NCBI GenBank assembly: GCA_965153355.1
Contig: OZ231126.1
Coordinates: 32,612,001-32,676,000 of the forward strand
Length of the DNA stretch: 64,000 nt
Source of the DNA: Flaccisagitta enflata
Taxonomy: Eukaryota
Direction: 5' to 3'
Position 1 is the first letter of the stretch. The number at the start of each line of letters is the position of its first letter. Positions 6,648-33,130 of this stretch are shown piece after piece. The translations under genes were made by a program, and so were the position numbers. Below the pieces are notes generated by a model. That model worked only from the letters and a program-made list of their open reading frames with translations, was not told the origin of the DNA and ran no database searches.

Positions 6648-7090
6648 CTTCTACTTCTTCTTCTCTTATTATATTTAGCCCACGTAAACGTAGTTTTGAC
6701 TCTGGGATAGCTTTGTCTTGTAGAAATCTCTGATTGTCTGACGATGTTAGACGCAAAGGAAATTTAGGCGTAGATTGAAAAAAGGGCGTGACGATGGTCT
6801 CTTTGATGTGGTAAAAATTTCAACAATCTGAGAGGGGAAGAAATGAAAGGGAAATTGGGCATTAAAGGATGGTCAACCAATGCATGAAAACAACATGAGA
6901 TCAGGATAGACATGGACAGAAACAGCCAATAACAACATGTACATTTTATACAGAGGCCATGAAGCTAGATCCGTACACTGCCCCCGCCCTGCCCATCCCA
7001 CTAAATTCACCCATGTCACCCCAATAATCAGTTGACCGGACAGACGATAAAAACAGACGATAAAATGATAAAAAACAGACAATAAACAAT

Positions 7091-7722
7091 AACAGGTCGC
7101 CCAAGGGCAATATGTGGTCAGCGATACCCGTTGCCCTGCTTTGAGTGATTGTGAATTGGAGTGAGGGGAAGCAGGGCAGCGGCCCCGAAGGGGACGAAGT
7201 CCTGTAGAACACAGGGGGACTTTCGTTCGTCCTACCTGAAGAAGTGGATGAGATGCTATAGAGGGCTGACTGAAGGCATTCAAGAGCCTAAACTGAGGTC
7301 TAAGAAGACTGATACAAGCCCTGAGAATGCCGATTGGAAGCTTAAGAGGGCTGACTTGAGGCTTGCGAGAGCTGGATTAAGGCTTGAAAGGCCAGAGGAC
7401 TGATTTGAAGCCTGGAAGCAATAAATTGAGGTTTAGATGGCTGATTTGAGGCCTGAGAGGCCTAATTTGAGGCATGAGAGGCCAGGTTTGAGGCCTGAGA
7501 TTTGGATTTGAGGCCTGAGAAGCCAGATTTGAGGCCTGAGAGGCCAGATTTGAGGCCTGAGAGGCCAGATTTGAGGCCTGTTCAGGCTGGATTTGAGACC
7601 TGAGAGGCTGGATTTGAGGCTTGAGAGGCCTGATGTGAGGCCTGAGGGGTCTGACAAAGGGGGGGGACTAACGGACGAACGGACGGATGGACGGACGAAA
7701 GAAAGTCCCCCTGTGTTCTAGA
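7091..7722 (-). mobile_element. Helentron-like family B copy (partial), same subfamily as 42417-43253
   Basis: Shares unique internal sequence and the 21-bp GAGAGGCCAGATTTGAGGCCT array. Confidence 0.7.
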
Positions 7723-8509: not shown

Positions 8510-9223
8510 AATAGTCGCAAAAGCGTTAGATGGTCAGCGGTACCCGTTGCCCCTATGAGAGTGTGTGGGTGTGTGGTGGTTAGAGGGGCAGCGGCCCCAA
8601 AGGGGCCGATGACCTATGCTGTTTTTATTTGAGCCTCAAGGCTGGGATTAGGGTCTGGAGGCTGTAATTGGGGCCTTGAGACTGGGATTTGAGCCTTGAG
8701 GCTGGGATTTGAGCTTTGAGGCTGGGATTTGAGGCTTGACACTAGGATTTGGGCCTTAAGACTAGGATTTGAGACTCAAGGCTGGAATTTGAGCCTCAAG
8801 GCTGGGAATTGAGCCAAGAGGCTGGGATTTGAGCCTCAAGGCTGGGATTTGAGCCAAGAGGCTGGGATTTGGGCCTCAAGGCTGGGATTTGGGCCTCGAG
8901 GCTGGGATTTGAGCCTCAAGACTGGGGTTGGAGCCCCAGGCTGGGATTTGAGCCTCAAGACTGGGATTTGAGTCCAAGGCTGGGATTTGATCCTCAAGAC
9001 TGGGATTTGAGCCTCGAGACTGGGATTTGAGCCTCGAGACTGGGATTTGAGCCTCGAGACTGGGATTTGAGCCTCGAGGCTAGGATTTGAGCCTTGAAGC
9101 TAGGATTTGGGTCCCAAGGCCGGGGGGGGGGGACGCAGAAGGAGAAGAAGGTGAAGGAGAAGGAGAAATTTCCCCTGTGTGAAAGCATAGGTCATCGGCC
9201 CCTTCGGGGCTGCTGCCCAAAAA
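8510..9223 (-). mobile_element. Helentron-like family B copy with 21-bp array
   Basis: AATAGTCGCAAAAGCGTTAGATGG end, subterminal inverted repeats, GCTGGGATTTGAGCCTCAAG array. Confidence 0.7.
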
Positions 9224-9274
9224 GGGGAGGGGGGGGGGAAGGGGGAACGGGCCTAGGAGCACCTCTAGACTGGG

Positions 9275-9642
9275 ATTTAACATCGAGGTGGAAAAAGATA
9301 AGTGGAGGGCAAACTAAAATGTACAAATATACGAACCTATTTGTAAACAACATGCTGAAAAGACAATGTCAAATACAAGAAAAACATACATGTTCCTAAG
9401 AACACAAAACAAGAATAAAATAATAAATTACTATCCAAACTACATTAAAACCGAATCTGAAAGAAAAAGATTAGGTAAGATTCATGGGAACGACCACGTC
9501 ACCTGCACCATTTCCCAAAGGAAATATGCGGACCATATCGGAAGCTCTAACAGCTCGTCAATTCGTGGGCAAAAGACGAAGATGAAACGATCAAAATGGA
9601 CACCGCGATGATGGGCAGATGGCGTCATCGTCTGTAGGAATA
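9275..9642 (-). mobile_element. Candidate 3' LTR (partial) of the BEL/Pao element
   Basis: Non-coding unique sequence starting right after the PPT-like tract. It begins TA rather than TG, no second LTR is present for comparison, and the distal end is obscured by a repeat insertion. Confidence 0.35.
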
Positions 9643-9652
9643 TTCCCCCCTC
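9643..9652 (-). other. Candidate polypurine tract of the BEL/Pao element
   Basis: Minus strand GAGGGGGGAA about 320 bp after the ORF stop, directly followed by TATTCC (TGTTCC would be a canonical LTR start). Confidence 0.5.
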
Positions 9653-9971
9653 GCAGGGAGAAGGAAAAAAGAGAAAAGGGGGGCAGATGGATTAGTACAG
9701 TTCTTATCATATGCAGATTCAATCATAATAACAAGAAATAAACACACCATCTCTTCCATGAAACTTACGCGGGCGTTTTTCGCCAGGCCCTGGGGTGGAT
9801 AAGAATCCCATGCCCCGGGTCGCGCCCCCGACAATGCCGGCCTGTCCATTGAGGGATGAGCATTGCGGTGAAATTGACGACTCAGCGAGATGGTGGCGCT
9901 CTCCATGTCGCGTTACGTTGATGATAATTAATAGGAAGGGTAACTGTGGACGTGGCACCATGTTGACAGCT

Positions 9972-10909
9972 TTATTGCGGCGGCTGCTGTTGGTTATGCT
10001 GCTGCTGCTGCTGGCGGCCTGGATTCCAAGGACGCCTTTTAGGTTTTGGCGGCGCCTTGGGAGTGTCTTTTGCGCTTTGAGCAGTCGATGAGACGGAAGG
10101 CCGATTTTCGTTTTCTGCTGAAGCTGTCGATGTCGACAAAGCTGTGGGGGTCACTGGAGCCAGAAGGGCACGAGGATCTTGCTGTATGCAGAGGACGTGC
10201 TTGAAGGCTGCTGCCGTCGACGCCTTCTGCGCAAATCCCGTCGCCTCCTTAGCCTTTGCGTCCGCCACTTGCTTCGCCTTCTCCAACTTCTTCTCCAGAT
10301 CTGCGACTCGCATATCGCTCTTGACCTTTGCATCTGACGCAATCATCGCTTTGCATCTCGTCTCCATGACTTCCGTCTGAATCCGCGACGCTTCCGCCAT
10401 GTCCCAAACAGCACAGGCACATTCAACTCGCTGAGCGTTGCTGAATGATTTGTAAAAGGTGGCTGGGAGGTAACTTGCAAGTCTTGACAACTGACGTTTG
10501 GAGGTGCTCTTTCCAGTTGCCGAACACAGGCGGAGCAGATGCTCGTCGATGCAAAGTCCAGTCTCGGGGTCAAGAACCGTCGACAAAGAGTTTGGCCATT
10601 CCAACTTCTGTTGCTGATAAACTGGTGGTCCTTTCGACTGTTGTTGAGACGTCGCAGAACCCCTGGCGACCGCCGGAGGCTGGATATCACCAATTGGATT
10701 TTTCCCTTGCGCTGCTGCTGCTTCTGGCCGCTGTTTAAGCTCCTTTGTCTTCTTTGACGCGGGCGCCGTTGAAGACGCAGTTGCTCCCCCGCTACCTGAA
10801 GCTGATGCCGCTGCGCTGGGGACCTCCTGCTGCTGAGGAGGCTGTTGTTGCTTCTTTTTATTATTGTTTTTGCCTTTGCCTTTGCTTTTGGAATTGGCCG
10901 TGGCTTGAA

Positions 10910-10940
<31 letters not shown>

Positions 10941-11430
10941 TTGTTGCCATTGGTGCTGCTGATGTTGTTGCTGCTGCTTTGGCTGCTGGAGTTGCTGCTG
11001 CTGCTGCTGATGTTGTTTTTGCCGTTGCTGCTGCTGATGTTGTTGCTGCTGCTTTGGCTGTTGTTGTTGCTGCTGCTGCTGGTGTTGCTGCTGCTGCTGT
11101 TGATGTTGCAACGGGTCGAGTCCCGTTTGCTTTTTCTCTTGTCGACACCTTTTTGGGTTGGGAGCTACATCTTGAGGATCCGGCGGCTGCTGATTTGGGG
11201 GATGAACCAAAGCCGGACGCGTTTGACGAGCTGCTGCTGCGTTGGTGGAAGTTGCCGCCGGTGGGTTTGCGGTTGCAGCAGACGATGGAGTTGTCGTCAA
11301 ATTCTTCTTCGACGCTTGGACCACATGTCGAGCCTCCTTGTAATTCTCCCTTTTCGTTTTTTGTCTTCCTTGTCTGCGTTCTAGGGTATCAAACCCTAAC
11401 CCACACTGAGTAGCCGACGAACGCATTTCC
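9972..11430 (-). CDS. 3' part of the split 726-aa accessory ORF (Q/A-rich linker, Cys-containing core, predicted coiled coil)
   Basis: 484-codon open frame. Removing 11435-18236 plus one TSD gives TGC TGC AAC AAG GAG AAG GAA ATG CGT (CCNKEKEMR), in frame with the upstream part. Confidence 0.75.
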
Positions 11431-12438
11431 TTCTCACACTGTTCCCATACAGCGACTTAATCAGACTTGAGTGTCTGGGTTGGTGATTGATAGGGAAGTG
11501 TTCTCCAATATCATGGGAACATCAGCCACTATCTGGTAAGTTTTTTGGAAAGCAAAATTTTCGTAAAACACCCCTTGCTGCCTGGAAGGAAAACCGGTCA
11601 GGTGGTGGCTTTTTTATTTTCATAGTTTACCTTGTTTCGTTCATAACTTTGGAACGGATTGATCAAAATACCTGGGATTGGACTCGTTTGCAAGATATTT
11701 TGAAGTAAATTACGAAAAATATATCAAAAATGGGTTGTCACCTTGCAAAAGCTCGCTTGAGGCTGTCGAATGAGACCTAAATGGTAAGAATTGTCAAAAA
11801 TGACAAACCATGATTTTTTATGTCAAACGCATGAGTCGTACCTCGCTGCTCTATAAATGATCCGGGATGACTTATCATAAACTAAGTTGAGGATTTAGGA
11901 CCCAAAGGGCCCACCAACAGAGCTCTCAGGGCCCGAAATTAAAACAAAAATGCTTAAATCAATCTAAATATTCAATATTGACATTCGTGTTTATTCCTTA
12001 AGTGCGCCAACGCACCTCTATCTGAAGCTTTGTCTCTTGGTTGGTTAATGATTGACTGGTTGATTGGTCAGTTGGTTGGTCGGTTGGTTGGTTGGTTGGT
12101 CAGTTGGTTGTCAATGGCTGGTGAACTGGAACCTCGGAGGCATTATTCCCATGAATGATTCAACAAGCCCATCCCGGCAACTCGATGCGTCATCTTTGTG
12201 AATTTTGAAAAAGGCGTGACAAACATACGGGCTGATGGATCAACTGACAGATGGACAAACCCTCCTATAGGGATAAGATGATGCATCTAAAAACCAATGG
12301 TATCTTAAGAATCATGTTGCTTATATTCTAGGCGGTGATTCAATCCTGGGGAGAGAAGTTATCAAATGAGACGCGATAAAGCATTTGCCATCACTTTTAG
12401 CTATTTTTTTTTTAGTCGCGTGTTACGCGACTCTACAC

Positions 12439-12790
12439 TACGCATGTCAGGGTGCCAAAAACGGGCGCAATTGGCTTTCCCCCCGCCATCATCTTTTTCC
12501 TTTGCAGAAGTCCTGTCAAACAAGCCATCGCGCAACCTTTATTTCGATCAGGAACCATCGTTAGGGTTTGGTTGAAGTTTCTATTGGATTAGCATTAGAA
12601 TTGATACTTTTATTATGCAAATTTTGCCTCATCCATAGATTACTATGGACACTTCATGGTCTACCTAACGATGGTTCCCGATTGATTTGAAAGTCGCGCA
12701 ATGGCTCATTTGATAGCATTTAAACAAAGAAAACAGATGAGGGTGGGGGGAAAGCCAGTTTTTGCCGATTGCGGCACTCTGACATGCGTA
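12439..12790. mobile_element. hAT-type MITE
   Basis: TIRs TACGCATGTCAG / CTGACATGCGTA, loosely palindromic body, 8-bp TSD CTCTACAC (12431-12438, 12791-12798). Confidence 0.85.
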
Positions 12791-12804
12791 CTCTACACCC
12801 CGCT

Positions 12805-15108
12805 GTATCTGGGCTCCTAACGCTAGTGAATCCTCTTTCCTCGCGCTTCAGCACATCCAGAACCAGGCCCTGCGCATCGCCACTGGCTGCCACTCCATCA
12901 CCTCCATTGATCACCTCCACAACGAAGCCGAAGTTATGCCTGTTGCACCTCACATCGAAATGCTTAACCAACAATTCCTAGTCAACGCCTTGAAGCCCTC
13001 TCATCCTTCGCACGCCATTGTCACGGCGCCTTACGGTCCACGCAAGATGAAGGCTACCCTTCATTCAAAATATGCTTCCTCCATCAATCAACATCTGTCC
13101 AACGGCTCTACTGACCCTGCCCAGTATTCTTCCACCCTCAAAAACATCCATACTTCTGCGGTCGCCACTTCCATCAACCGTCGCGTCTCGGCGTTAATTC
13201 TCTCCTCAGCACACGCCCACTGCCTGTATCTCCATCTGAGCGGAGGCTGTCGAGGCCACAGCGCACGACTCTGTCGCAACTGAGGTCCGGTCACTGCCGG
13301 CTTATGCAAGATTATCGCGTCCGTCAGACATTCTGTTATGCCCCCATATTTATAGGGGAAGGCCGGTTCGCGATTAAATTGGTACTTTATTGTATAAAAA
13401 AACAATTTCAGGTCTTGTTAAGGATTTTCTATCTCCCCTGGAATAGCGGTTTTGGTTTTACTATCATGGGTAATAGGTAGTTGTTGGGAAAATGTCCAAA
13501 TTTGGTCACTTTGGCCTCAAATTTAGGCCACTTCACCTTTGAAATCGAACCTAAAATCCATGAGATTATTAAACTAGAGCTCAAGAGCTAACCAGTGGTG
13601 CAATCCGCATGTTTTTATCTTTATTTTTTTAGATTTTCGAGAGTTTTAAAGATGGGGCTTGAGAGGACTTTTTTGCAGCATGAAATCTGGGGGTAATTTG
13701 GACATTTTTCACATTTTTCACTATACCGCAGCTTTGGATAGACCAATCTTTAAAAAATTGGTGACCAAATTGAAGAGTTTTTGATGCTTTAACTGATTCT
13801 GGAAAAATTTTGGATCGATATGGCCTCCAAAGAATTTTATTCACTCTCAAAGCAGGTGAAAAAAATCAAATTTTGATGTCATTTAGGTTATTTTTCATTG
13901 AAAAATTATGCCACTTCCAAACTGAAAATTGACTTTTAATTCATGAGCAAATTAAACAACAGCTCAAGAGCTAATTAGTGGTGCAATCAGAATATTTCTA
14001 TGTTTACTTGTTCAGATTTTAGAGTCTTTCAAAGATGAAGGGGTATGAGGATCATTTTTGTCATTATACCCTTTAAACTTTGAAGTTTTGTCAAATCTAG
14101 ACGCAGAATTGTTTTGACATGCCGATTGCACCACTGATTAGCTCTTGAGCTGTAGTTTGATTTGCTCATGAATTTTAAGTCAATTTTCAGTTTGGAAGTG
14201 GCATAATTTTTCAATGAAAAATAACCTAAATGACACAAAAATTTTGTTTTTTTCACCTGCTTTGAGAGTAAATAAAATTTTTCTGAGGCCATATCGATCC
14301 AAAATTTTTCCAGAATCAGTTAGAGCATCAAAAACTCTTCAATTTGGTCACCAATTTTTTAAAGATTGGTCTATCCAAAGCTGCGGTATAGTGAAAAATG
14401 TGAAAAATGTCCAAATTACCCCCAGATTTCATGCTGCAAAAAAGTCCTCTCAATCTTTAAAACTCTCTCAAATCTAAACAAAGAAAGATAAAAACATCCG
14501 GATTGCACCACTGGTTAGCTCTTGAGCTCTAGTTTGATAATCTCATGGATTTTAGGTTCGATTTCAAAGGCAAAGTGGCCTCAATTTGAAGCCAAAGTGA
14601 CTAAATTTGGTCATTTTCCCAACAACTTCCTATTACCCATGATAGTAAAACCAAAACCGTTACTCCAGGGAAGGTAGAAAATCCTTAACAAGACCTGAAA
14701 TTGCTTTTTAATACAATAAAGTACCAATTTAATCGCGAACCGGCCTTCCCCTATGAATATGGGGGCATAACAGAACGTCTGGCGTCCGTGTTGGGCAGTC
14801 CACTACTGACGTTTGCCCGGTCTGCAACTCTCAGCCCCACACGGTGTCTCACCTCTTTGATTGTGCTGCCGCTCCGACTACATTAACTGTAAAAGATCTT
14901 TGGCTTAACCCTGTTGCTGTCTGCGACTTCCTATCTTCGCTGCCGCCTTTCGCCTCTCTCCAATCTCCGGTGACGCCACCTTCTCCTTCTCCTCCTCCGT
15001 CCCCTCCACCTCTTCCTCCTCTTCCCCCTTGTCCCCCGCCTGAGCCGCCACCATGATCTATTCGTTTAAGCTTTCTACGCAACTTCGTTGCCCGGGGCCA
15101 CAACAACA
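12805..15108 (+). mobile_element. 5'-truncated I-group (Ingi/Vingi-like) LINE 3' end, interrupted by a hAT foldback element
   Basis: Encodes IWAPNAS..LQHIQNQALRIATGCHSITSIDHLHNEAEVMPV..., then LSQLRSGHCRLMQDYRVR|VGQSTTDVCPVCNSQPHTVSHLFDC..DLWLNP (post-RT region plus CCHC finger). Frameshift near 13185, (AAC)n tail, TSD ACACCCCGCT (12795-12804, 15109-15118). Confidence 0.85.
13325..14781. mobile_element. hAT-type foldback element, almost fully palindromic (1457 bp)
   Basis: CAGACATTCTGTTATGCCCCC / GGGGGCATAACAGAACGTCTG ends, about 700-bp inverted arms, 8-bp TSD GCGTCCGT (13317-13324, 14782-14789). Confidence 0.92.
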
Positions 15109-15160
15109 ACACCCCGCTATGTCCGCCCGTTGGTTGGTCGGTTGGTTGGTCATTCCCCTT

Positions 15161-16515
15161 ATGGGCAGCGGCCAAGGGGCCGATAACCTATACTTTCACA
15201 GATATAGGTAATTTTCTTCGCCTTCTTCTCCTTCTCCTTCTTCGCACCCCCCCCCTCAAAGCCCAGCCTCGAGGCCCAAAATCCAGTCTTGAGGCCCAAA
15301 TTCCAGTCTCGAGGCCCAAATCTCAGTCTCGAGGCCCAAATCCCAGCCTCAAGGCCTAAATCCTAGCCTCGAGGCCCAAGTCCTAGCCTGGAGGCCCAGA
15401 TTCCAGCCTTGAGGCTAAATTTCAACCTGGAGGTCCAAATCCCAGCTTACTATCTTGGAAATAAATATACGGACACCTAACCATCATTATAGCAGCTACC
15501 CTGCAACAACTACTTCAAAAATGAAAGAAGATCAACAAACAATGACAAAATATCTTTCATTCAAGTCCAAGCAAAGGTCAGTAGCTCAAACTGTTTTCAT
15601 TTGACAGCGTTTTAAAGAGAAACTGCCATTTTACCAAAATCGTATTTTGAGGTTTTCAGTTCAAATCTTCAAAGGACAACCTATGTTGAAAGAGCTCAAA
15701 TCTAAACGGATTGACCAAAATCATTTTGCTTGACCTTGTTAGATCAGATCTTTTACAAATTTTTTGACTGTTAAAAAAATTGAAGGCTGCAGTTAAACAT
15801 ATTGCGCTCAAATTATTTAATATCAATACAAAACCAAACAGATTATATGATTTTTATGGTGCTTGTTGAGAAATTAAGGATACACTGATTAAGGTTGAAA
15901 AATCGTAAACCAATCCCATAGAAACTCAAAACAGAAGCAGGTCATAGATCAAAATACCATGAAATGACTAAAAATTAATTCATTTGAACATACATCTCAT
16001 TCAGTGTGTGATAAAACTGACTTTTCTCCAGCTGTCCGTATATTTATTTCCAAGATAGTAGAGGGCAAGGTCCCAGCCTTGAGGCTAGGATTTGGGCCTA
16101 GAGGCTGGGATTTGGGCTTTGAGGCTGGGATTTTGGCCTTGAGGCAGGGATTTGGGCCTAGAGACTGGAATTTGGGCCTCAAGGCTGGGCTGGGGGGGGG
16201 TGGAGGAGGAGGAGAAGGAGGGCCAAAATCAGGCCTGAGACTGTAGAATTGAGGCTCTGGTGGCCAGGGGGGGGACGGACGGAAGGACGGACAGATGGAC
16301 AGACGTCTCAAATCCCCCCGTGTCCTACAGGACATCGGCCCTTTGCTTTGGGGCCGCTGCCCAAAAAGGAGGAGAAAATTCCCCATATGTGTGAAAGCAT
16401 ATGTCAACAACCCCTTTGGGGCCGCGGCCCTGCTTCCACTTCACTTTCAAGCCCAAACTTAGGCAGGGCACAGGTACCGCTGAGGCGCTGACCATCTAAC
16501 GCTTTTGCGACTATT
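15161..16515 (+). mobile_element. Helentron-like family B copy or copies with 21-bp internal array and nested MITE
   Basis: GGGCAGCGGCC subterminal inverted repeats, GAGGCCCAAATCCCAGCCTC-type array, 3' end CTGACCATCTAACGCTTTTGCGACTATT. Confidence 0.6.
15450..16058. mobile_element. TA-flanked MITE (Tc1/mariner-type)
   Basis: Perfect TIR CTATCTTGGAAATAAATATACGGACA flanked by TA. A related TIR bounds 3189-3417. Confidence 0.75.
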
Positions 16516-16834
16516 ACTTTATGGTCTCATCACTGCATCTGCCTGAATCTCCTTTCAACCTCCGCAGCCCTGTCCCTACCAGCTCCCGCGCACCCTACTC
16601 ATTTTAATGTTACTGAATTTTTACCCATCTGCTCAATTTCTTTGAGCAAATGCTCAAACAAAAGGTGAGCCATGGGAATGATCGGTAACTTTAAATCTAA
16701 CCAAGCACGTTTAAAATCAGCAATTTATCTTCTGTAATGAATGAAAGAATGAATAGATGATTTGAATGAATAACTGAATAAATTAGTAAATGAATGAATG
16801 ATCAAACAAATGAATGAATGAATGAATGAATGTA

Positions 16835-17436
16835 ACCATAGCCAAAAAAAAAAAGTAGACGCTCAATTCTTATCATTTAATTGAAAACCAGTCACACTTT
16901 TTACTTGAAATCTATGAGCTTTTTAAAGAGCTTCAAAAACTCTGCAAATCTAGACCAAGCAGAAATTTGTGACTCAAGTCGTTTAGAAATGACATAAGAT
17001 TGAAGTTCAACACTCATTTTTCAAAATGCCAAAAAGAGCAGATTTCATCATCTGTGAACAAAGCATTATTTTACTTACTTTTTCTGTAGAAGGAAGTAAT
17101 GAAATAAATGGAATAAAATTTAAGGTAAAAATGAAGTATTTTTAATTCTCTACAAGATGAAACCAAGCAAAATTCTTGATTCCGCTTCGTTTAAAGGCTG
17201 TATTAATTCAAAGTTGGTTACTCTAAAAACATTTCTAAACATATTCGAGATTTTTGAGTAGTTGTCTTTAGAATATCATAACTTCTAAAATTTTGAAGCT
17301 AGAATGTTCAGAAAGAGCTCAAATGAAAGATCTTTCGAAGCTCTTTAAAACCGTCATAGATTTTAAGGGTTTACCATCTTTAGTTACCAAGCAATCAACA
17401 ATCAAAACATTGCGTCTACTTTTTTTTTGCCATGGT
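16835..17436. mobile_element. TA-flanked MITE (ACCATRGC termini)
   Basis: TIR ACCATAGCCAAAA..GTAGACGC / GCGTCTAC..TTTGCCATGGT with TA TSD. The empty site GAATGTATAAAACATG is preserved in the adjacent tandem duplicate near 17621. Confidence 0.8.
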
Positions 17437-17723
17437 TATAAAACATGATTACAAAGGAGAAAGGAATATTGATTAAGAGTGTTTTCTGAGATCTTATGCA
17501 GACATGACTGACAGATCGAAATGCAAACTGACCAACAAATGGACAGACAAACTGACAGCCTAACCATGAATGAATGAATAAATGAAATGAATAAATGAAT
17601 AAATGAATGAACGAATGAATGAATGTATAAAACATGATAACAAAGGAGAAAGGAATATTTATTGAGAGTGTTTTTAGAGATCCTTTGAAAACATGACTGA
17701 CAGATTGAAATGCAAACTGACCA

Positions 17724-17762
<39 letters not shown>

Positions 17763-18236
17763 AACTGACAAACTGACAGGCTGACCAAAAGACAAGCCAA
17801 TGGACTGGATTCCAATTAGATACGCAAGGACTTAATGATTTGGGGAGGTAAAAAAAATAAAGACACAGATTTCAGTCAGTTACAAGCATTTGGCCTGTGT
17901 TGGGACTCCCTTACAGACTCTCAAAGGGGCTGATATCTCTCATGATGGATTTTTTCATAAAATATAACCAAATATCTTCAAATCGAGACCATCTCCAAGT
18001 ATTTTGGCCAATTTGTTTAAAAATTATTCTTGAAACAAGGTAAGCTTTCCGTTGTATGGATACCACCACCTGACCTGTTTTTGTTCTTGATGATAGAAGG
18101 CATTTCACGAAAAGTTTGCTTTAAAAAAAACTTACCAAATAGTGAGAGATGTTCCCCACACACCACTGAACACTTCTCCGCCGATCAGTACCGCAGACAC
18201 TCAAGTCTGATTAAATCGCTATATGGGAACAGCGTG

Positions 18237-18958
18237 TTCTCCTTGTTGCAGCACAAATTAAGTTTGGAGAAGGCTTTGAAGATCAACGACTCAGACTCAT
18301 CCGCTTGGTCTTTGCGATGGTAGAACCAGCATGCTTGCTTCCGCTGGATCCTGACCTCTGGGGAGTCTTCATCCACATCTGGGTCGACGGGCGTCTCCTC
18401 CTTTTCCTCCACTGTCACCTCCACATCCATCCCCTCCTCCTCCCTTCGCACCTCCTCCCCATCAACCTTTAAGCCGTTGTCTCCGCCCCCGCTGCGATGA
18501 TCTGCAGCTTTCAATCTCTCCTGGAGAAGGGCTCTCGCCTCCGGAGGAGCCGGTCCACCAAATCCAGGGGTAAAGATTCGGCGAGGGGGCGACGGAAGGA
18601 TGGACGATCCCAACGACGAATTGGCGATGGAAACATCGTCGACGGGCCGCTTCAACTTCACACTCCGATGACCCACTCCCGCGGTGGTTTTCGTCGTGAT
18701 GACGATGGGAGGGAGAGTGGAAGAAGAAGGGGCGTCGGCCGGCTGTTGGTGATTTGCCGACGCATCGTCTTTGTTGAGGTTGAGGTCGCCGCTGAAGGCA
18801 GCTTGCATCGCCGCCTCCACCTCGTCCTCAAGCGACGCCGCAGAATACGTCTCAAAGTCTTCATCCCGTTCTGGTGTTGTCATCAGGCCGGCGATATCGA
18901 AAGAACCGTCGGCCGTCGACGCATCCATCTCGGCTTGGAGACGCTGCTCGCGCGACAT
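18237..18958 (-). CDS. 5' part (codons 1-240) of a split 726-aa accessory ORF downstream of BEL/Pao pol
   Basis: ATG at 18958 in context GTCAAG-ATG with an in-frame TGA shortly upstream. The frame is open to the TTCT TSD at 18237-18240. The track's last 17 aa (NTLFPYS...) come from the inserted TIR. Confidence 0.75.
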
Positions 18959-19325
18959 CTTGACTCCGACAAATCGACTTCAAGATGATGACTGACGTAT
19001 AGATGGAATTTCGACGTCAGCGGAAGCTTTCGAAAGTTGTTTTGAACGTATGAACTGTGTTTGCACAGAAGCAATTGAGAAATAGCATGATATCTACATG
19101 TAGACAAAGCAGTGAAACAATGTTTGAATTTTTACATGAAAATGAACATCACAAATTTGCCAATATGAGGAAAGAGTTGAATGCATGGATGAATAGAACC
19201 AAACATGAAGTCGTACATCTCTTTATGTCAGTTAAAAACAAACAGAGCAACAAACATTCACATCTATAGTTACTAATAGACAGGCCCATGCGCCTAAATC
19301 TCTCTCTCTCAAAACTTAGAGTTTT

Positions 19326-19910
19326 TTATGAGTCCATCTCCAGTCGCACAATCTTCGTGCGATCCCTCGTGACAATTCTTCCGTTGGCGCGGCGTACGTG
19401 CGCCCTCCAGACATGGGGCGACGTCCCTTCCACGTCGACGACTCTCCCCAGGCTCCAATCATGTCTGGGCACAGCCTCGTTGACGATGATTACAAGATCA
19501 TCAACCGCAAAGTCTTTCTCAGATTTGGTCCATTTACTTCTCGCATGAAGGAGACTCAAATATTCACAACGCCATTTTTAGTCGCGGACACGCCACTCTA
19601 CACCTTGCCGTGTTGGTCGGTATGTCGGTAGGTCCGTCGGTCCGTCGGTCCGTCACATTTCTGAATTCCGGGTGGTTTTTGCATTACTGCTCCTGCCCAA
19701 CCGTCCGCGACTGGATTGCCGTGTATCCGGCCTTGTTTCCAAAAAGCATCCACTCGAGATTGTGCGCGCTTCCATTGGACATGTGCCGACTCTGCGTCGA
19801 AGTTGACGCCGTGCTGCAACAGATCTATAGGAGCGTCACCGGAAGTAGATGGCAATTGGATGTGATTTGGCGTTAGCGCCGAGGGATCGCTTGGATCATC
19901 ACTCAGATAA
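19326..19910 (-). pseudogene. pol: BEL/Pao LTR-retrotransposon pol C-terminus (integrase 3' end, DUF5641-like), 5'-truncated and split by a small Helentron-like insertion
   Basis: The minus strand reads YLSDDPSDPSALTPNH...QWKRAQSRVDAFWK | (insertion about 19576-19737) | WRCEYLSLLHARSKWTKSEKDFAVDDLVIIVNEAVPRHDWSLGRVVDV...GRIVTRDRTKIVRLE*. This matches the characteristic BEL/Pao LTPxH...FWxxWxxEYL...RxKW...DLV...WxLGRV pattern. Confidence 0.9.
19576..19737 (+). mobile_element. Short complete Helentron/HINE-like family A element
   Basis: TTTTAGTCGCGGACACGCCACT hairpin, GTCY/GTCGG microsatellite, end GCCGTGTATCCGGCCTTGTT. Inserted in a T-run of pol with no distinct TSD. Confidence 0.75.
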
Positions 19911-20179: not shown

Positions 20180-22899
20180 GACAAGTGACGCGGGGTCACA
20201 ACATAATTGCGGACAGGTGGGCGGGGGCATCCAACCCTGATCCACACCCCAGCTCCCACCCCATACACAAACATACACAAAAACTAACCAAAACACTTGT
20301 TCTTCCACTTTTTGACTTGATCATTAGGACCGACGGACTAACGGACGGATAAAGTCTCTTACAGAGTTGCGTGTCCGCAACTAAAAATAGCAGCCCAAAG
20401 GCAGTAAGTGGTAGGTGGTACCCTTGCCCTGCTTGTGTAGTGTGTGATTTAAGTTGAGGGGGAGCAGGGCAGCGGCCCAAAAGGGGACGAAGTCTTGTAG
20501 AACACAGGGGGAATCTGTCCGTCCTTCCGTCCGTCCGTCCGTCTGTTTGTCCCCCCCGCATCACCCTCAGGGCTTTGTCTCCTTTGAGGCCTATTCTGAC
20601 CCAAATTCTGCCAAACAGCCCAAATCCAAGCAATATGGCCCAAATCTCAGCAAAATGGCCCAAATCCAAGCGTAATGGCCCAATTTCAAGCAAAATGGTT
20701 AAAATCTGTTCAGAATCTAGGTATCAGAGGCTACAATACAGGTCTAAGGGGCCAAAATGATGGACTTAGGGCTAGAATTGGGGTTTTCTGGCCACATTTG
20801 GGCCATTTTGCTTGAGATTGGGCCAATATGCTTGGATTTGAGCCATTTTGCTCAGATTTGGGCCATATTGCTTGGACTTGGGCTATTTGGCAGAATAGGC
20901 CCCAAAGGAGACGAAGCCCTGAGGGTGAAGCGGGGGGGATGGATGTATGGATGGACAGATTTCCCCTGTATTCTACAGGACTTTGTACCCTTTGGGGCCG
21001 CTGCCCAAAAAATGAAATGAATTGTTCATGTTATTTCAATTGCAATTGATATAACATGGAAACAGGTCGCCCAAGGGCAATATGTGGTCAGCGATACCCG
21101 TTGCCCTGCTTTGCATGATTGTGAAATAGAGTAAGCATGATTGCATGATTGCATGATTGCATGATTGTGAAATAGAGGAAGCAGGGCAGTGGTCCTGAAG
21201 GGGACAAAGTCCTGTAGAACATAGGGGGACTTTTGGGCAGCGGCCCCAAAGGGGACGAAGTCCTGTAGAACACATGGAGGCTTTTGTTTGTCTGTCTGTC
21301 CATTTGTCCGTCCGTCCATTCGTCCCCTCATCAGGCCCCTCAAATCTAGCCTTTCAGGCCTCAAATCCTGCCTCTCCGGCCCCAATTCCAGCCCTTCCGG
21401 CCTCAAATCCAGCCACTCAGGCCTCAATTCTTGCCTCTCAGGCCTCAAATCCAACCTCTCGGGCCTCAAACCTGGCCTCTCAAGCCTCAAATTTGGCCTT
21501 TCAGGCCTCAAATCAGCCATCTAAGCCGGAATTTATTGCTCTTAGGCTTTAAATCAGTCCTCTGAATGGGCAGCGGCTTCGACGGGGACAATGTCCTGTA
21601 GAACACAGGGGGACTTTTATTGTTTGTCTGTCTGTGTGTGCGTGCATGTGTCCCCCCCCCCCTTGAGACTCAAATCTCAGCCTCAAAGCTCAAACCCCAG
21701 CCTCGAGGCTCAAACCCCAGCCTCGAGGCTCAAACCCCAGCATTCGGGTGTGTCAATATGCAAAAGGTTTTTTGATGAGATCATCAACATCAGACAGCAT
21801 AAGATATTAAATTCAAAGACCTTTAGCATTTTGATTTCATCAAATTTCATTTATCTTTCATTTTTTTCAAAACCCCTATTTAGACGCTAATTTGTATATT
21901 GCTGTGTTGATGATTTTCTATCAGTATCATTGTTACTGAACTTAATCAGATTCAACACATAAATATCTTGGTGCTAATTCAACAAAGTAATGGTTGTTTA
22001 TTTATCACCAAAGTTGTATAAAGAGATAATAACCAATCTTTTCTGTAGAAGTTATGTGTCTTATTTTCACCAAAACTGGAAGTATATATATTTTTGACTA
22101 TCTTTTCTTGCGCTAAAAAAATGGAAGATGATGGAAATTTGAAAAAATAAAAACGCTAAAGATTTTAGAATTCTTTTGTTTACACTCCCTGATGTCGATG
22201 ATCTAATCAATCATACTTTTGCATATTGACACACCCGACCCCAGCATCAAGGCTCAAATCCCAGCCCCAAGCCCAAATCACATCCTCGAGGCAAAAATCC
22301 TAACCTGGAGGCTCAAATCCCAGCCTCAAGGCTCAAATCCCAGCCTCAAGGCTCAAATTCCAGACTTGAGGCTCAAATTCCAGCCTTGAGGCTCAAATTC
22401 CAGCCTCGAGGTTCAAATCCCAGCCTTGAGGCTCAAATCCCAGCCTCAGGGCTCAAATTCAAGCCTCAAGACTCAAATCCCATTATTTAGCCATGGGGCC
22501 CATGAAGAAAATAACAGGTCGCCCAAGGACAGCTATACCCGTTGCCCTGCTTTGTGTGATTGTGAAATGGAGTGAGAGGAAGTAGGGCAGCGGCCCCAAA
22601 GAGAAGGAAGTCCTATAGAACACGGGGAATTTTGTTCGTGATTCCGTCCGTCCATCCGTCCATCCCCCCCAGAGAACAAATGATTTCAGGCCTGAGAGGG
22701 CAGAATTCAGGCCTAAGAGGGCAGATTCAAGGCCTGAGAGGGCAGATTTTAGGCCTGAGAGGATAAATTTCAGGCCTGAGAGGGCAGATTTCAGGCCTGA
22801 GAGGGCTTGGGAGGACAAACAAACGGACGGACAGAATTACAAACAATAGTCCCCCTGAGTTCTACAGGACTTCGTCCCCTTCTGGGCCGCTGCCCAAAA
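20180..22899. mobile_element. Cluster of stacked family A/B Helentron-like elements
   Basis: Repeated GGGCAGCGGCCCC..TGTAGAACACAGGGG boxes, 21-bp arrays in both orientations, AACAGGTCGCCCAAGG ends at about 21061 and 22512. Confidence 0.65.
21744..22238. mobile_element. Mutator-type MITE
   Basis: TIR TCGGGTGTGTCAATATGCAAAAG / CTTTTGCATATTGACACACCCGA, 9-bp TSD CCCCAGCAT (21735-21743, 22239-22247). Confidence 0.88.
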
Positions 22900-23427: not shown

Positions 23428-24844
23428 AAAGATTCCTTGCTCGGTCCTCCTTTTCGCCCATTACATTTCTTTAAAATTCTCCTGGTGCTCACGCAAAAGC
23501 TGCTGCTGACGTGCTGCTGCCCACGTGCTGCTGCTGACGGGGAGGAGGTGGCGGGAGAGAGGATGAGGCATGTCCAATCCTAGTAGCGCTGTCGTCGCTG
23601 ACGCCGCGCGCGTGCTCGTGGCTTTGGCATCGAATCAGCCGCTGCCTTTGAAATTGCTGCCGCGACGGCTGCGCAATTTTAGCTGCGGACATGCAACTCT
23701 ATGAGAGGCTTTGTTCGTCGGTTTATCCGTTGGTCCATCGGTCGATGAGCAGGAGCTGAAAAGTGGGAAAACAAGCGTTCAAGATGCTTGTGTGAGTGTT
23801 GGGGTGTGGATTGGGTGTGGATGGGGGTTGGATGCCCCTGCCCAGGCTTTGTCCGTTGGTCCATCTGTTGGTCCATCTGTCTGTGAGCACATGTTGAAAA
23901 GTGGGAAAATAAGCGTTCTAGATGCTTGTGTGAGTGTTGGGGAGGGGATTGGGGGTGGATGAGGATTGGATGCCCCTGCCCACCCGTCCGCTACGATATT
24001 GTGACCCCGTGTCATTTGTTTTCGAATTTTCCTTTCCTACTTACAGTTACACTGAAGATATGGATACTTGTAGAATTTTTACAAGAATGAATCTGTGTCC
24101 AACGTTTATTTTTGCAAAAGTGCAAATGAAACAAGGCCGTATACACGAGAGGACAATCGCGGACGGTTGGGCACGGGCAGTAAAGCAAAAACCGCTCGCA
24201 ATTCAAAAATGTGACCTACCGACCTACCGACCTACTGACCAACACGGCAAGGTGTAGAGTCGCGTGTCCGCGACTAAAAATTATGTCTATCATGAATTTT
24301 TCAACAAGTGTGCAGTCACTGTAAAACAAAAACTGTTTCGGTAGTTAAATTCAGTACTTGAAGGATAACAATTAATGCATGAATGCAGTTTTTCTTTTAA
24401 AAACATTCACATAAAAGACATTTTTCAATTGTTTTTCATGATTTTTCACATACATTAAAAGATTGATCCAATTAAGATAAAAAGGTGCAGAAACAATTTA
24501 CTAACGACAGTGATGACCAAAATGAAGATCTAACATAGGACACATAGAAAAGCATTTCACACATACATAATGATTGTATTTGGACACAAATATCAACGAA
24601 TGGTGAAAATTAATATCCGAAAATTTTCGATCCGTACTCGAATCTTCTTCAGTCGGAAAAGAAATAAGGGAAAAGAGACAGAGCAAAGGAAATATGGAAA
24701 TATGGAAGAAAGAAAGAAGAAGAAGGAAGGAAATAAAAGAGACAATAGATAATGGAGAAGAGAGAGAGGGATATTTGTGTCCAAATACAATTATTATGCC
24801 TCAAGCTCAACGACTCAACTTTCACCTTAAATCACACATACATA

Positions 24845-25268: not shown

Positions 25269-26064
25269 TAGAAATGATTACCGATGTATTTTAGCCTCTA
25301 AATTACGGAAAAAAACAACCATCGGAATGATGGACCAACAAACCAACCAATGATCCAACTGAGTGACAAAGTGATTCAAGGGCCGTTTCTAGTCAAAGTC
25401 GATCGCGTTTTGAACTGGCCACTCGGTCGCTCGCTATGTCCGTTCGCTCGCACCGCTCACTCTGCTCACTTGCTCCGCAGCACTCTGCTTCACTACAATC
25501 CGTTCACGGCCCACTCACTCGTAAGACAGTTGAAATTCTTGAATATGTGTTCACGCTGTTATCGCGTTTTACTGGAACAAACGCGTTTTTGGCGCTCACT
25601 AGAAACACACCCTTATGATGTTGCGTAGCACTCATCATTAAAAACAAGGCCGGATACACGGCAATCCAGTGGCGGACGGTTGGGCAGGAGCAGTAATGCA
25701 AAAACCGCTCATAATTAAAGAATGTGATGGATGGACGGACCGACGGACCGACCGACCTACCGACCGACCGACACGGCAAGGTGTAGAGTCGCGTGTCCGC
25801 GACTAAAAATGAAATTGAAAAGTTATTCTATAATTTTGAGAAAAAGAAAAACTATAAAGAACGACTTGGTTCCGGTTCTGTACCAACACCAGGTTCCACT
25901 TTCGATTTCAACGTACGATACAGCGTCGTGGACGTGCTGATGCTGCTGCTGCTGCTGCTGTTATCACTGCCCTCTATTTCCTCCTTCTTCCTCCTTTCTT
26001 CCTCTTCCTCCGTTTTCTCCTCCTCGTCGTCCTCCCGCCAGCGCCTAGAGTTCTATACATCTTC

Positions 26065-28903: not shown

Positions 28904-29060
28904 TATTACATCATCAATCCTCCTGTCAATTCTCTTTGGTCGTCATCCTTTGGATCCGAGAAGTTTGCGCTTGCAAATCCAAATTTGGACTCGACAAAAA
29001 ATTCTGACATTCTGTCTAGTAGCTTATCAACCCCCTCCCCTATGTATACCATCTTAATTC

Positions 29061-31568
29061 CCTTCCCATGCTCCTGAATCATCACCTCCACCGCCTCCTC
29101 AAGATCATTTCCTTCCCATGCTCCTGAATCATCACCCCCGCTGCCTCCTCAAGATCATTTCCTTCCCATGCTCCTGATTCATCACCCCCGCTTCCTCCTC
29201 AAGATCATTTCCTTCCCATGCTCCTGAATTATCACCCCTGCTGCCTCCTCAAGATCATTTCCTTCCTATGATCCTGAATCATCACCCCACTGCCTCCTCA
29301 GGATCATTTCCTTCCATTGCTCCTGAATCATCACCCCTGCTGCCTCCTCAAGATCATTTCCTTCCCATGCTCCTGAATCATCACCCCCGCTGCCTCCTCA
29401 AGATCATTTCCTTCCCATGCTCCTGAATCATCATCCCCGCTGCCTCTTCAAGATCATTTCCTTCCCAGGCTCCTGAATCATCACCCCTGCTCCCTCCTCA
29501 AGATCATTTCTTTCCCATGCTCCTGAATTATCACCCCCGCTGCCTCCTCAAGATCATTTCCTCCCCATGCTCCTGAATCATCACCCCTGCTGCCTCCTCA
29601 AGATCATTTCCTTCCCATGCTCCTGAATCATCACCCCCGCTGCCTCCTCAAGATCATTTCCCCCCATGCTCCTGCATCATCACCCCCGCTGCCTCCTCAG
29701 GATCATTTCCTTCCCATGCTCCTGTATCATCACCCCCGCTGCCTCCTCAAAATCATTTCCTTCCCATGCTCCTGAATCATCACCCCCACTCCCTCCTCAA
29801 GATCATTTCCTTCCCACGCTCCTGAATCATCACCCCCCACTGCCTCCTCAAGATCATTGCCTTCCCATGCTCCTGAATCATAACCCCCCCCGCTCTCTCC
29901 TCAAGATCATTTCCCCCCATGCTCCTGCATCATCACCCCCGCTGCCTCCTCAAAATCATTTCCTTCCCATGCTCCTGCATCATCATCCCTGCTGCCTCTT
30001 CAAGATCATTTCCTCCCCATGCTCCTGAATCATCACCCCTGTTCCCTCCTCAAGATCATTTCTTTCCCATGCTCCTGAATCATCACCCCCGCTGCCTCCT
30101 CAAGATCATTTCCTTCCCATGCTCCTGAATCATCACCCCCGCTGCCTCCTCAAGATCATTTCCTTCCCATGCTCCTGAATCATCACCCCCGCTGCCTCCT
30201 CAAGATCATTTCCTTCCCATGCTCCTGAATCATCACCCCCGCTGCCTCCTCAAGATCATTTCCTTCCCATGCTCCTGAATCATCACCCCCGCTGCCTCCT
30301 CAAGATCATTTCCTTCCCATGCTCCTGAATCATCACCCCCGCTGCCTCCTCAAGATCATTTCCTTCCCATGCTCCTGAATCATCACCCCCGCTGCCTCCT
30401 CAACATCATTTCCTTCCCATGCTCCTGAATCATCACCCCGCTGCCTCCTCAAGATCATTTCCTTCCCATGCTCCTGAATCATCACCCCCGCTGCCTCCTC
30501 AAGATCATTTCCTTCCCATGCTCCTGAATCATCACCCCCGCAGCCTCCTCAAGATCATTTCCTTCCCATGCTCCTGAATCATCACCCCCGCTGCCTCCTC
30601 AAGATCATTTCCTTCCCATGCTCCTGAATCATCACCCCCGCTGCCTCCTCAAGATCATTTCCTTCCCATGCTCCTGAATCATCACCCCCGCTGCCTCCTC
30701 AAGATCATTTCCTTCCCATGCTCCTGAATCATCACCCCCGCTGCCTCCTCAAGATCATTTCCTTCCAATGCTCCTGAATCATCACCCCTGCTGCCTCCTC
30801 AAGATCATTTCCTTCTCATGCTCCTGAATCATCACCCCCGCTGCCTCCTCAAGATCATTTCCTTCCAATGCTCCTGAATCATCACCCCCGCTGCCTCCTC
30901 AAGATCATTTCCTTCCCATGCTCCTGAATCATCACCCCCGCTGCCTCCTCAAGATCATTTCCTTCCCATGCTCCTGAATCATCACCCCCGCTGCCTCCTC
31001 AAGATCATTTCCTTCCAATGCTCCTGAATCATCACCCCCGCTTCCTCCTCAAGATCATTTTCTTCCCATGCTCCTGAATCATCACCCCCGCAGCCTCCTC
31101 AAGATCATTTCCTTCCCATGCTCCTGAATCATCACCCCCGCTGCCTCCTCAAGATCATTTCCTTCCAATGCTCCTGAATCATCACCCCCGCTGCCTCCTC
31201 AAGATCATTTCCTTCTCATGCTCCTGAATCATCACCCCCGCTGCCTCCTCAAGATTATTTCCTTCCAATGCTCCTGAATTATCACCCCCGCTGCCTCCTC
31301 AAGATCATTTCCTTCCCATGCTCCTGAATTATCACCCCCGCTGCCTCCTCAAGATCATTTTCTCCCCATGCTCCTGAATCATCACCCCCGCAGCCTCCTC
31401 AAGATCATTTCCTTCCCATGCTCCTGAATCATCACCCCCGCTGCCTCCTCAAGATCATTTCCTTCCCATGCTCCTGAATCATCACCCCCGCTGCCTCCTC
31501 AAGATCATTTCCTTCCCATGCTCCTGAATCATCACCCCCGCTGCCTCCTCAAGATCATTTCCTTCCCA
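29061..31568. repeat. Tandem satellite, 50-bp unit, about 50 copies
   Basis: Unit CCTTCCCATGCTCCTGAATCATCACCCCCGCTGCCTCCTCAAGATCATTT repeated head to tail without spacers. Confidence 0.98.
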
Positions 31569-32567
31569 CTTAACCACCTCTTTTGCCTCGACCATCAACC
31601 ATTGAGTTCCCCTTTTGTAATTGTATATACCTGCAACTCGACGTCGACACCCTTTTTTCAACAAGCCCGGATACACGGCAATCAAGTCGCAGACGGTTGG
31701 GCAGGAGCAGTAATAAGAAAACTGTGCGCGATGTTTCGGACGGACGGACGGATGAACCGAGGTACTGACACGCCATGGTGTCCTTGACTAAAAATGATTT
31801 TAACGACACCTTGAGGATTTCCTTCTCCTCCTTCACTCCACGTCAACCCTATGAGTTCACCATCTTATTACATAACCATTCTTGTTTAAAAATTACCACC
31901 ATTATGGGTCTCTTCTCCATCCTCCTTCACTACATGCACCATAACCATATGTTAGTTTCCCATTTCTTTTCTCCTCTACCGTCTGTTAATTTGTCTTCCT
32001 CGACATCCACACCACCACTTGTCATTTATTCGTTCTCGTTCATCATGTTATTGACACTTTTCCCGATGAAGGCGACGTCCCCGTTTCGCCGCCGGCAGAA
32101 GAAGTTGGGGTTGAACATCATAAAATAGTGCAAAAGCAAAAATATGATCGACATCTTTCTTTTCTGTGCGTTTTTTTTAACGCTGACGTTACCATAATTC
32201 GGTTATTGATTTGTACCCGACACTTTGCCTTTGTTCATGCTCGATCCATATTCCTACGTGCTCAAAAGAACGTCCGTATGTCTTTGTATGGAACCCTGCC
32301 CTTCAGTCTGTCAGGCAGGCGTTTTACTTTAGTCCCGGCGCACATTTCATGTCCATCACGCCTCCTCCGAAATCCCGCGGATGACACGATCGGGTCTGTT
32401 TTCCATCTCTTTTATTTCCATCCGTAGTGATGCACACTATATCTTGAGTTTTATTCTTTATGATGTTTCCTCTCGTTCGGTCTCTGTTGACACCGTTCTT
32501 CCCTCAGAAGCGACTTAATGACCCGCGGTTTCCTCATCACAGCCCATGCCCAAATATTTGACTGACC

Positions 32568-33130
32568 TTTTTGGGCAGCGGCACCAAAGGGGTCGGTGAT
32601 CTATGCTTTCACTTATGGGGAATTTTCTCCTACTTCTGCTTTTTCTCCTGCCCCTCCCCCTGACTCAAATCCTAGCCTCAAGGCTTAAATCCCATTCTCA
32701 AGGCCCAAATCCCAATCTTGAGGCCCAAATCCCAGCCTGAAGGCTCAAATCCCTGCCACGAGGCCCAAATCTTATCCTCTAGGCCCAAATCCCATCCTTG
32801 GAGCTTAAATCTCAGCCTCGAGGCCCAAATCTCAGTCTTTAGGCTCTGATTTAAGCCCTCAGGCCCAAATCTCAGCCTCCAGGCCCAAATCCCAGCTTCC
32901 ACGCCCAGATTCCAGTGTGGAGGCCTAATTTCCAGCCTTGAGGCTTAACTCCCAATCTTGAGGGGGACGGTGAAGGCTAAGAAGAAGAAGGAAAAAATTC
33001 CCCATATGTGTGAATTCATAGGTCATCAACCCCTTTAAGGCCGTTGTCCTGCTACAACCCTCAGTTTCAAGCACAGCATGCTTAGGCAGGGCACAGGTGC
33101 CACACACCATCTAACCCTTTTGCGACTATG
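32568..33130 (+). mobile_element. Helentron-like family B copy
   Basis: TTTTTGGGCAGCGGC start, 21-bp array, inverted subterminal box, end CCATCTAACCCTTTTGCGACTAT. Confidence 0.7.

Follow-up and report, generated by a model that had tools for sequence, protein, structure and literature searches.

What kind of gene can a BEL/Pao retrotransposon carry behind pol, if not an envelope gene? This question is raised by a stretch of 64,000 nucleotides from Flaccisagitta enflata (assembly GCA_965153355.1, contig OZ231126.1, positions 32,612,001 to 32,676,000 of the forward strand), the whole of which is referred to here as the window. The minus strand of the window carries the remains of a BEL/Pao element in which pol is followed by a same-sense open reading frame (ORF) that we call ORF3. 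We consider it likely that these remains are a dead 3' fragment from a family in which ORF3 serves as an accessory factor, and we are more confident still that ORF3 is a real, conserved gene that is linked to the element and is not an envelope gene. A narrower proposal, that the ORF3 product shuttles between nucleus and cytoplasm, is put forward only tentatively.

The pol gene and ORF3 in the window

Read along the minus strand, the copy is truncated at its 5' side, at position 19906. The first piece (19727-19906) was found to be 87% identical in tblastn to residues 1166-1225 of P0062, an intact pol protein of 1305 aa from public assemblies, and lies past the integrase core. A high-copy insert of 158 bp (19578-19735) interrupts the pol tail, with the pol alignments overlapping by three residues on each side. 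The coding sequence then resumes as a peptide of 83 residues (19326-19577), with its stop codon at 19326-19328. This peptide is the C-terminus of pol, as it matches the Pfam family DUF5641, with which BEL/Pao pol proteins end (expectation value, E, of 4.3e-15; score of 56 bits, the cut-off being 23.1), and is 90% identical to P0062 residues 1223-1305. In the window pol is represented only by residues 1166-1305 of about 1305, i.e. by its last 140, and no further pieces of pol or ORF3 were found elsewhere within it. The initial annotation, a reading made from the sequence alone before this analysis, had recognised a BEL/Pao element with a same-sense ORF about 370 bp past a pol stop at 19326, and both points were confirmed: the ATG of ORF3 is located at 18958-18956, on the minus strand and 367 bp past that stop.

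The spacer between pol and ORF3 (18959-19325, 367 bp, minus strand) contains, on direct reading of the sequence, a (GA)n run and two short motifs, namely TGACGTCG at 19012-19019 and TCAGT at 18991-18995. It occurs only once within the window. The first part of ORF3 (18239-18958, minus strand) consists of 240 codons from the ATG and encodes an acidic disordered N-terminus followed by a conserved helical block, in which the sequence IFKAFSKLNL resembles a nuclear export signal (NES). This part is 72% identical to residues 3-242 of the relative P0002. ORF3 is then broken by an insertion of 6.8 kb (11435-18236). The second part (9975-11432, minus strand) has 486 codons and a stop at 9972-9974; it is 67% identical to P0002 residues 432-679 and 73% identical to the relative P0001. 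From N- to C-terminus it encodes a basic helix, a basic block of the form PxDxxPNPKR, a Q-rich low-complexity tract, a C-terminal helical domain and a basic tail. On the same strand, a 3' untranslated stretch of about 320 bp (9643-9971), delimited by sequence reading, leads to the purine run GAGGGGGGAA (9643-9652), a candidate polypurine tract.

Together the two parts of ORF3 amount to 240 + 486 codons, or 726 aa. Uninterrupted relatives, such as P0002 with 692 aa, are collinear with ORF3 across the break, and the residues that flank the break align to adjacent residues in these relatives. Because the relatives align across the break, the two parts can be taken as one gene, and the joining of the parts into a product of 726 aa, as had been suggested, is thereby justified. 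The element is not complete, however. With pol truncated and broken by the 158-bp repeat, and ORF3 broken by the 6.8-kb transposon, what remains in the window is the dead 3' part of an element, a truncated and twice-interrupted relic.

Association of ORF3 with pol and gag

In a Pfam search the intact pol protein P0062 matched Peptidase_A17 (E 7e-28), Integrase_H2C2 (E 7e-08) and DUF5641, and a match to rve (E 6.5e-05, 23.6 bits) was under the curated cut-off of 32.6. Judged by this domain content, the element is a member of BEL/Pao.

ORF3 and pol proteins of this family were found on contigs of identical size. As an example, a size of 11668 is shared by the ORF3 protein P0009 and the pol protein P0086, each of which occurs on two contigs. 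Further shared sizes are 9828 (P0048 and P0100), 8491 (P0055 and P0102) and 8792 (P0129 and P0103). These coincidences were observed only where P0002-type ORF3 was compared with P0062-type pol and P0022-type ORF3 with P0064-type pol, the size of 8792 belonging to the latter; in the four other pairings of ORF3 and pol clusters that were compared, no identical contig sizes were found. We estimate that about 0.02 matches per pairing would be expected by chance, with about 15 sizes per list spread over 0.6-14.7 kb. In addition, the clusters are comparable in size, with 92 and 81 members for ORF3 against 118 and 113 for pol. Spacer, pol tail and ORF3 are also equally repeated in two DNA sequencing runs from one organism, where the word depth of each is in the thousands. 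Moreover, the two genes have diverged in proportion to each other. Between subfamilies pol is 77% identical and ORF3 37-47%, and the window copy shares 90% identity with its nearest relatives in pol and 67-73% in ORF3.

A metagenome contig of 1165 bp, which we call L002, provides information on the 5' side of the element. It is 93% identical to the start of P0064-type pol, and directly upstream of the pol protease (positions 3-617) it encodes the end of a gag protein with three Cys/His knuckle motifs of the CxxC...H...C type. Pfam gave no match for this gag piece, and the window itself contains no gag. The gag and pol sequences are in the same frame with one stop codon between them (618-620), which suggests that pol would be made by readthrough of the stop codon and not by frameshifting. 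A second stop is present at 1005-1007, within the protease region. Since a zinc-knuckle gag of the ordinary kind thus precedes pol in this family, ORF3 is a third gene and not gag. L002 was obtained in a scan of metagenomes with the pol protein P0107, which returned only two contigs of about 1.1 kb each, one of them informative for gag. A metagenome scan with the ORF3 protein P0022 returned no relative, and scans of viral contigs with P0002 and P0022 gave no match.

The initial annotation had proposed an accessory protein carried by a BEL/Pao lineage, and had named as a competing possibility that the homologues belong to a separate element, as its gag or ORF1, or to the host. That ORF3 is a conserved gene linked to the element is upheld by the contig sizes that ORF3 shares with pol and by the open frame in at least three subfamilies, which is described below. 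Against a separate element, gag lies upstream of pol and, by indirect evidence, ORF3 and pol share contigs.

Conservation of ORF3

Intact relatives of ORF3 were found in several clusters, represented by P0002 (692 aa, cluster of 92), P0022 (703 aa, 81), P0127 (710 aa, 87) and P0059 (673 aa). Of the members listed, 12 of 15 in the P0002 cluster and 9 of 15 in the P0022 cluster are full length. Copies within a cluster differ at a median of 8 of 692 residues in one case and of 16 of 703 residues in the second. As the copies are near-identical within clusters and mostly full length, the families that bear ORF3 are young and have probably been active recently.

Full-length ORF3, of 673-710 aa, is present in at least three subfamilies that are mutually 37-47% identical, and in the family alignment blocks of conservation are seen near both termini and in between. 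Chance does not keep a frame of about 2.1 kb open across such divergence, and by this comparison of sequences ORF3 is a gene maintained by selection. The distribution of nucleotide differences gives a further, weak hint of constraint: of 21 listed differences between positions 18239-18958 and other copies, 11 fall in third, 7 in first and 3 in second codon positions, in a hand count from 40 of the 343 rows of the difference table.

A search of 1.84 billion representatives returned 23 proteins related to ORF3 at E <=0.001, which derive from environmental or assembly records. The longest of these has 703 aa, and because none exceeds this length there appear to be no fused forms of ORF3. A profile search with ORF3 added only further members of the same subfamilies. 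Pfam searches found no family at E <=1 for the two ORF3 halves of the window and only noise (E >=0.3) for P0022, while a profile search of PDB sequences also gave only noise (E 2.8). No usable match was found in the ESM Atlas. Foldseek gave no match at E <=0.001 for the full model against PDB or for the C-terminal domain against BFVD, the latter with E >=0.5 throughout. In VIA-align the C-terminal domain reached a best Z of 6.7, with generic long helices only; a helix of gp45 of equine infectious anaemia virus was observed at Z 6.5, tied with dozens of unrelated coiled coils. Neither similarity to viral fusogens of the class I F-like, class III gB-like or phlebovirus-like kinds (in Pfam, the PDB profile, Foldseek against PDB, BFVD and VIA-align) nor a DNA-binding domain (in Pfam, the PDB profile and VIA-align) was recognised. 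The earlier description of the product as an uncharacterised protein agrees with the lack of Pfam, PDB, fold and Atlas matches.

Composition and predicted structure of the ORF3 protein

The ORF3 protein is hydrophilic, with a grand average of hydropathy (GRAVY) of -0.7 to -1.3. In five of five sequences the maximum Kyte-Doolittle mean over 19 residues is 0.48-1.17, so that there is no hydrophobic segment. The first 20 residues of the five sequences have a mean hydropathy of -0.57 to -0.93, and a signal-peptide-like N-terminus is lacking. As it has neither a hydrophobic N-terminus nor a hydrophobic stretch, the protein is not an envelope glycoprotein, and the initial annotation had correctly noted the lack of a signal peptide and of a transmembrane segment. 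The charge is split along the chain, the first 200 residues having an isoelectric point (pI) of 4.3-4.75 and the remainder a pI of 9.9-11.2.

An AlphaFold2 model built with the family alignment has a mean predicted local distance difference test (pLDDT) score of 49 over the whole protein. Two regions were modelled with confidence. The first is a basic helix (residues 254-285 of P0022, pLDDT about 86). The second is a C-terminal module which, folded alone, reaches a pLDDT of more than 90 over about 115 residues and contains two short helices and one helix of 78 residues. The ORF3 product is thus predicted to be soluble and mostly disordered.

Short conserved motifs are found at several places in the protein. 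The N-terminus carries a conserved motif of the form MSRxQRLxAE...GSxDL. The NES-like block, with sequences such as LFKEFAKLSV and VFKAFSKLNI, follows the pattern hydrophobic-x3-hydrophobic-x2-hydrophobic-x-hydrophobic and is in the same place in 10/10 sequences; it is the sole such pattern, or one of two, in each protein. Leucine-type export signals and classical import signals have well-known consensus forms, and the second of these is approached by a proline/basic block of the type PRDxTPNPKRRRR, which resembles a nuclear localisation signal (NLS) and was observed in 10 of 11 sequences. The basic C-terminal tail, KDAPK...RTRPWN, is present in 12 of 13 sequences. The protein also has a variable linker that is rich in Q, A, S and K.

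Other features that had been proposed for the protein fared less well. Two Cys-containing segments had been described as cores of the protein, but their cysteines are not conserved in relatives: QACWFY is replaced by QARWYY or QARWWY and RVECACAVW by RVEAARQVL. A zinc-finger reading of these segments was rejected, as the cysteines are replaced by R or A. A poly-Q/A linker had also been described. The Q-rich tract is limited to the window copy and the P0002/P0001 subfamilies, and those of P0022 and P0059 lack it.

Insertions and other repeats in the window

The 6.8-kb insertion in ORF3 has terminal inverted repeats of about 270 bp with 73% identity and is flanked by AGAA at 18237-18240 and 11431-11434. 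Two contigs of the data set X2 (records 10 and 11) depart from the window sequence at 18237, the edge of this insertion. Inside it we observed nested repeats and a fragment of an ORF resembling a non-LTR (long terminal repeat) reverse transcriptase (12783-13480, plus strand), while Pfam found nothing significant in three inner ORFs and no transposase was recognised. The gap was also considered as an intron and this was rejected, because the inverted-repeat ends and the AGAA flanks indicate the insertion of a terminal-inverted-repeat element. The ends of the insertion read CACGCTG.../...CAGTGTG. Such CAC... ends with short target duplications may point to an affiliation with the CACTA/Chapaev type. 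The same end was also seen in marine metagenome sequences (run X3, record 17). A near-perfect palindrome of 1.46 kb, 90% identical to its own reverse complement, is located within the insertion at 13322-14784.

The 158-bp insert in the pol tail resembles a short interspersed nuclear element (SINE) or a miniature inverted-repeat transposable element (MITE), and it is bordered by a duplication of about 9 bp. Copies without the insert, in which 19577 is joined directly to 19736, were found in five contigs of the data set X1 and two contigs of X2. Its word depth in the DNA runs is 7-15 million, as opposed to thousands for the BEL element. RNA was sampled from a polyA-selected run of the same study as the DNA run (X4; about 12 million reads, or 6% of the run), and the reads in the compared stretch are confined to this insert, where they are about 200 deep in both orientations. 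Similar pieces are located at 24129-24243, 25642-25756, 31659-31773 and 54383-54497.

Other repeats were observed in the window. One repeat unit consists of a 20-bp satellite of the CTCAAATCCCAGCCTCGAGG type between inverted copies of an end that contains GGCCGATGACCTATGC. It occurs four times, at 8580-9300, 15228-16220, 22235-22482 and 32566-32963, and one of these units lies directly behind the presumed 3' end of the BEL element. Furthermore, a tandem array with a period of 50 bp extends over 29007-31400, in a region where C is in excess over G (GC skew -0.44 to -0.57), and an inverted repeat pair of about 560 bp with 84% identity, which includes 21-bp tandem units, is formed between 7088-7720 and 42452-43257.

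Discussion

From these results the layout of the family would be gag with zinc knuckles, an in-frame stop, pol, about 370 bp of spacer, ORF3 (673-726 aa), about 320 bp and the 3' end. Of the mechanisms considered, the most probable is that the ORF3 product moves between nucleus and cytoplasm as an accessory factor and targets either the RNA of its own element or the transcription of that element; by analogy we regard this as a possibility, less probable than its opposite. The NES-like block would then serve as the export signal and the basic block as the import signal, and together with the basic helix and the candidate oligomerisation helix they would complete the parts list of an RNA-export adaptor such as Rev, Rex or CERV. 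Rev and Rex of complex retroviruses are the generally known examples of such adaptors. ORF3 itself would be expressed from a subgenomic RNA that is either spliced or internally promoted, and if this RNA is spliced, the element would face the export problem that such adaptors solve. It is somewhat more doubtful that the lineage amounts to a 'complex' retroelement with its own shuttling gene for RNA export or activation, evolved independently of Rev/Rex and CERV. A nuclear role for ORF3, also raised in the initial annotation, is one that we infer from the NLS-like and NES-like patterns alone, while no evidence was found for the anti-silencing role suggested there.

The closest functional parallel is CERV of the Caenorhabditis elegans element Cer1. 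As described in the available text of its report, CERV is lineage-specific, fast-evolving and nuclear, is needed to export unspliced genomic RNA, and carries candidate signals of both the NLS and the NES type together with a helical element for oligomerisation (PMC10309623). ORF3 has analogous NLS-like and NES-like patterns and a long helix, the likeness being one of patterns only. In contrast to ORF3, which is a single 3' ORF with a mostly disordered product, CERV is encoded by five spliced exons that overlap gag and has globular M and G domains, according to the same text. No sequence or fold similarity to ORF3 was found for CERV, Rev or Rex.

Several observations count against the interpretation of ORF3 as an accessory factor of this family. 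Among the contig pieces listed, those that contain ORF3 reach positions 19187-19194 in the spacer, others lead into pol from 19307-19308, and none bridges positions 19195-19306 on the way from spacer to pol, where a (GA)n run lies. Outside the window the linkage of ORF3 to pol is indirect, being read from equal contig sizes and not from contig sequences. The 3' end of the element is also putative. The PPT-like (polypurine tract-like) run that had been pointed out, GAGGGGGGAA, does exist, but it is one of 306 purine/pyrimidine runs of at least 10 nt in the window, and no second copy of an LTR behind it was found within the window. Practically no reads of the X4 sample were found on pol, spacer or ORF3 at >=80% likeness, with the exception of one bin at a depth of 0.6 on the element, and expression of ORF3 is unsupported by these reads. 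The coiled-coil-like tail that had been proposed is retained as a helix of 78 residues predicted with confidence, but its heptads are not above shuffles (712-1626 of 2000 shuffles reached the observed value), and the C-terminal feature is in the models a long helix and not a proven coiled coil. Finally, patterns of the NES or NLS type are common as well as short, and in ORF3 they are candidate signals only.

Among the other explanations, the one that survives best is that ORF3 is a passenger, whether a gene captured from the host or an ORF that arose de novo, without a role in the life cycle of the element. The difficulty of assigning a function by sequence or fold searches, the amount of low complexity, the fast evolution of ORF3 (37-47% identity against 77% for pol) and the absence of RNA reads from the sampled run would all suit a passenger. 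We nevertheless regard it as improbable, since the frame of about 2.1 kb is open in at least three diverged subfamilies and retains conserved blocks in its terminal and middle parts, most of the listed copies are full length, and no host-gene relative was found among the 1.84 billion representatives.

A little less probable again is that ORF3 is a transactivator of the element promoter, similar to Tas/Bel1 or Tax, that is expressed from an internal promoter in the spacer. Foamy viruses carry the 3' accessory genes Tas/Bel1 and Bet, have an internal promoter, and encode an activator with an acidic activation region. The likeness to ORF3 is in the position of an accessory gene after the structural genes and in the acidic region; however, no homology was found, and here the element is a BEL/Pao in an invertebrate-type genome with only a candidate internal promoter. 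The acidic N-terminal 200 residues, the Q-rich tract, the basic region and the NLS-like block would be in keeping with an activator. In the spacer we take TGACGTCG (19012-19019) to be a site similar to a cyclic AMP response element (CRE) and TCAGT (18991-18995, 35 nt before the ATG) to be an arthropod-type initiator, which would make an internal ORF3 promoter possible. On the other hand, no DNA-binding domain was recognised, P0022-type and P0059-type proteins are without the Q-rich tract, the candidate promoter motifs are short, and X4 showed no RNA starts.

It is very unlikely that ORF3 represents gag or ORF1 from another element that adjoins the pol fragment by chance. In favour of a chance junction, the truncated copy lies amid a mosaic of nested repeats and no LTR was identified for it. 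Against this, four exact contig-size matches pair ORF3 with pol by subfamily, pol of this family is preceded by a zinc-knuckle gag, ORF3 is not followed by pol or any further retroelement domain, and ORF3 has no gag or capsid match. Least likely of all is that ORF3 encodes an envelope or fusion protein in degenerate or unconventional form. It occupies the position of env in roo, Tas/Cer and mosquito BEL elements as described in the available texts (PMC3118150, PMC13524379) and contains a long helix, but it lacks a signal-peptide-like N-terminus, never exceeds a mean hydropathy of 1.17 in five sequences and matches no fusogen in fold or sequence. For the most part it is also disordered, and it is strongly basic and hydrophilic (GRAVY -0.7 to -1.3).

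Preferring, then, the reading of ORF3 as an accessory gene of its family, we can compare it with other third ORFs of retroelements. Plant Ty3/gypsy and Ty1/copia elements reportedly carry additional ORFs ('aORFs') beyond gag and pol. In bdelloid rotifers, the ORF3 types of Juno, Vesta and TelKA include a GDSL esterase and a DEDDy exonuclease, according to the portion of the report available (PMC5408684). As far as the available texts go, the rotifer and plant ORFs share with our ORF3 that they are lineage-restricted, often lie downstream of pol and often have no assigned function. They differ in that the present element is a BEL/Pao, that its ORF3 has no enzymatic domain and that no sequence relationship was detected. 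Within BEL/Pao, the third ORFs are described in the available text as envelope or fusion glycoproteins, in roo, in Tas/Cer-type elements and in mosquito elements with gB/Chuviridae-like proteins (PMC3118150, PMC13524379). These elements resemble the present one in belonging to the same pol superfamily and in having a third ORF between pol and the 3' end, whereas ORF3 here is without signal peptide, transmembrane segment or fusogen similarity. No account of a non-envelope third ORF was found in the portions of the BEL/Pao literature that were searched; this absence is provisional, because a name with a slash is unsearchable as one word and the supplementary element sequences of PMC3118150 may include such ORFs.

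Third genes mark the step from a simple retrotransposon to a virus-like or 'complex' retroelement, and in the text portions searched the third gene of BEL/Pao is described only as a captured viral envelope gene. If the shuttling interpretation is true, ORF3 would be the first accessory gene other than env to be described in Belpaoviridae and a tractable case of convergent evolution of RNA-export or transactivation factors in retroelements. If its motifs act as export and import signals, the family would make it possible to test independently why retroelements depend on helpers for RNA export; if they are inactive, ORF3 would join the many unexplained extra ORFs of LTR retrotransposons in plants and rotifers. 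The ORF3 product also illustrates how a protein encoded by an element can be conserved and yet mostly disordered, with short conserved motifs, and viruses use proteins of this kind to hijack host machinery. Because an orphan of about 700 aa that is not a membrane protein has been kept open through deep divergence and is present in hundreds of young copies, our analysis suggests that BEL/Pao elements are also able to acquire regulatory or adaptor genes.

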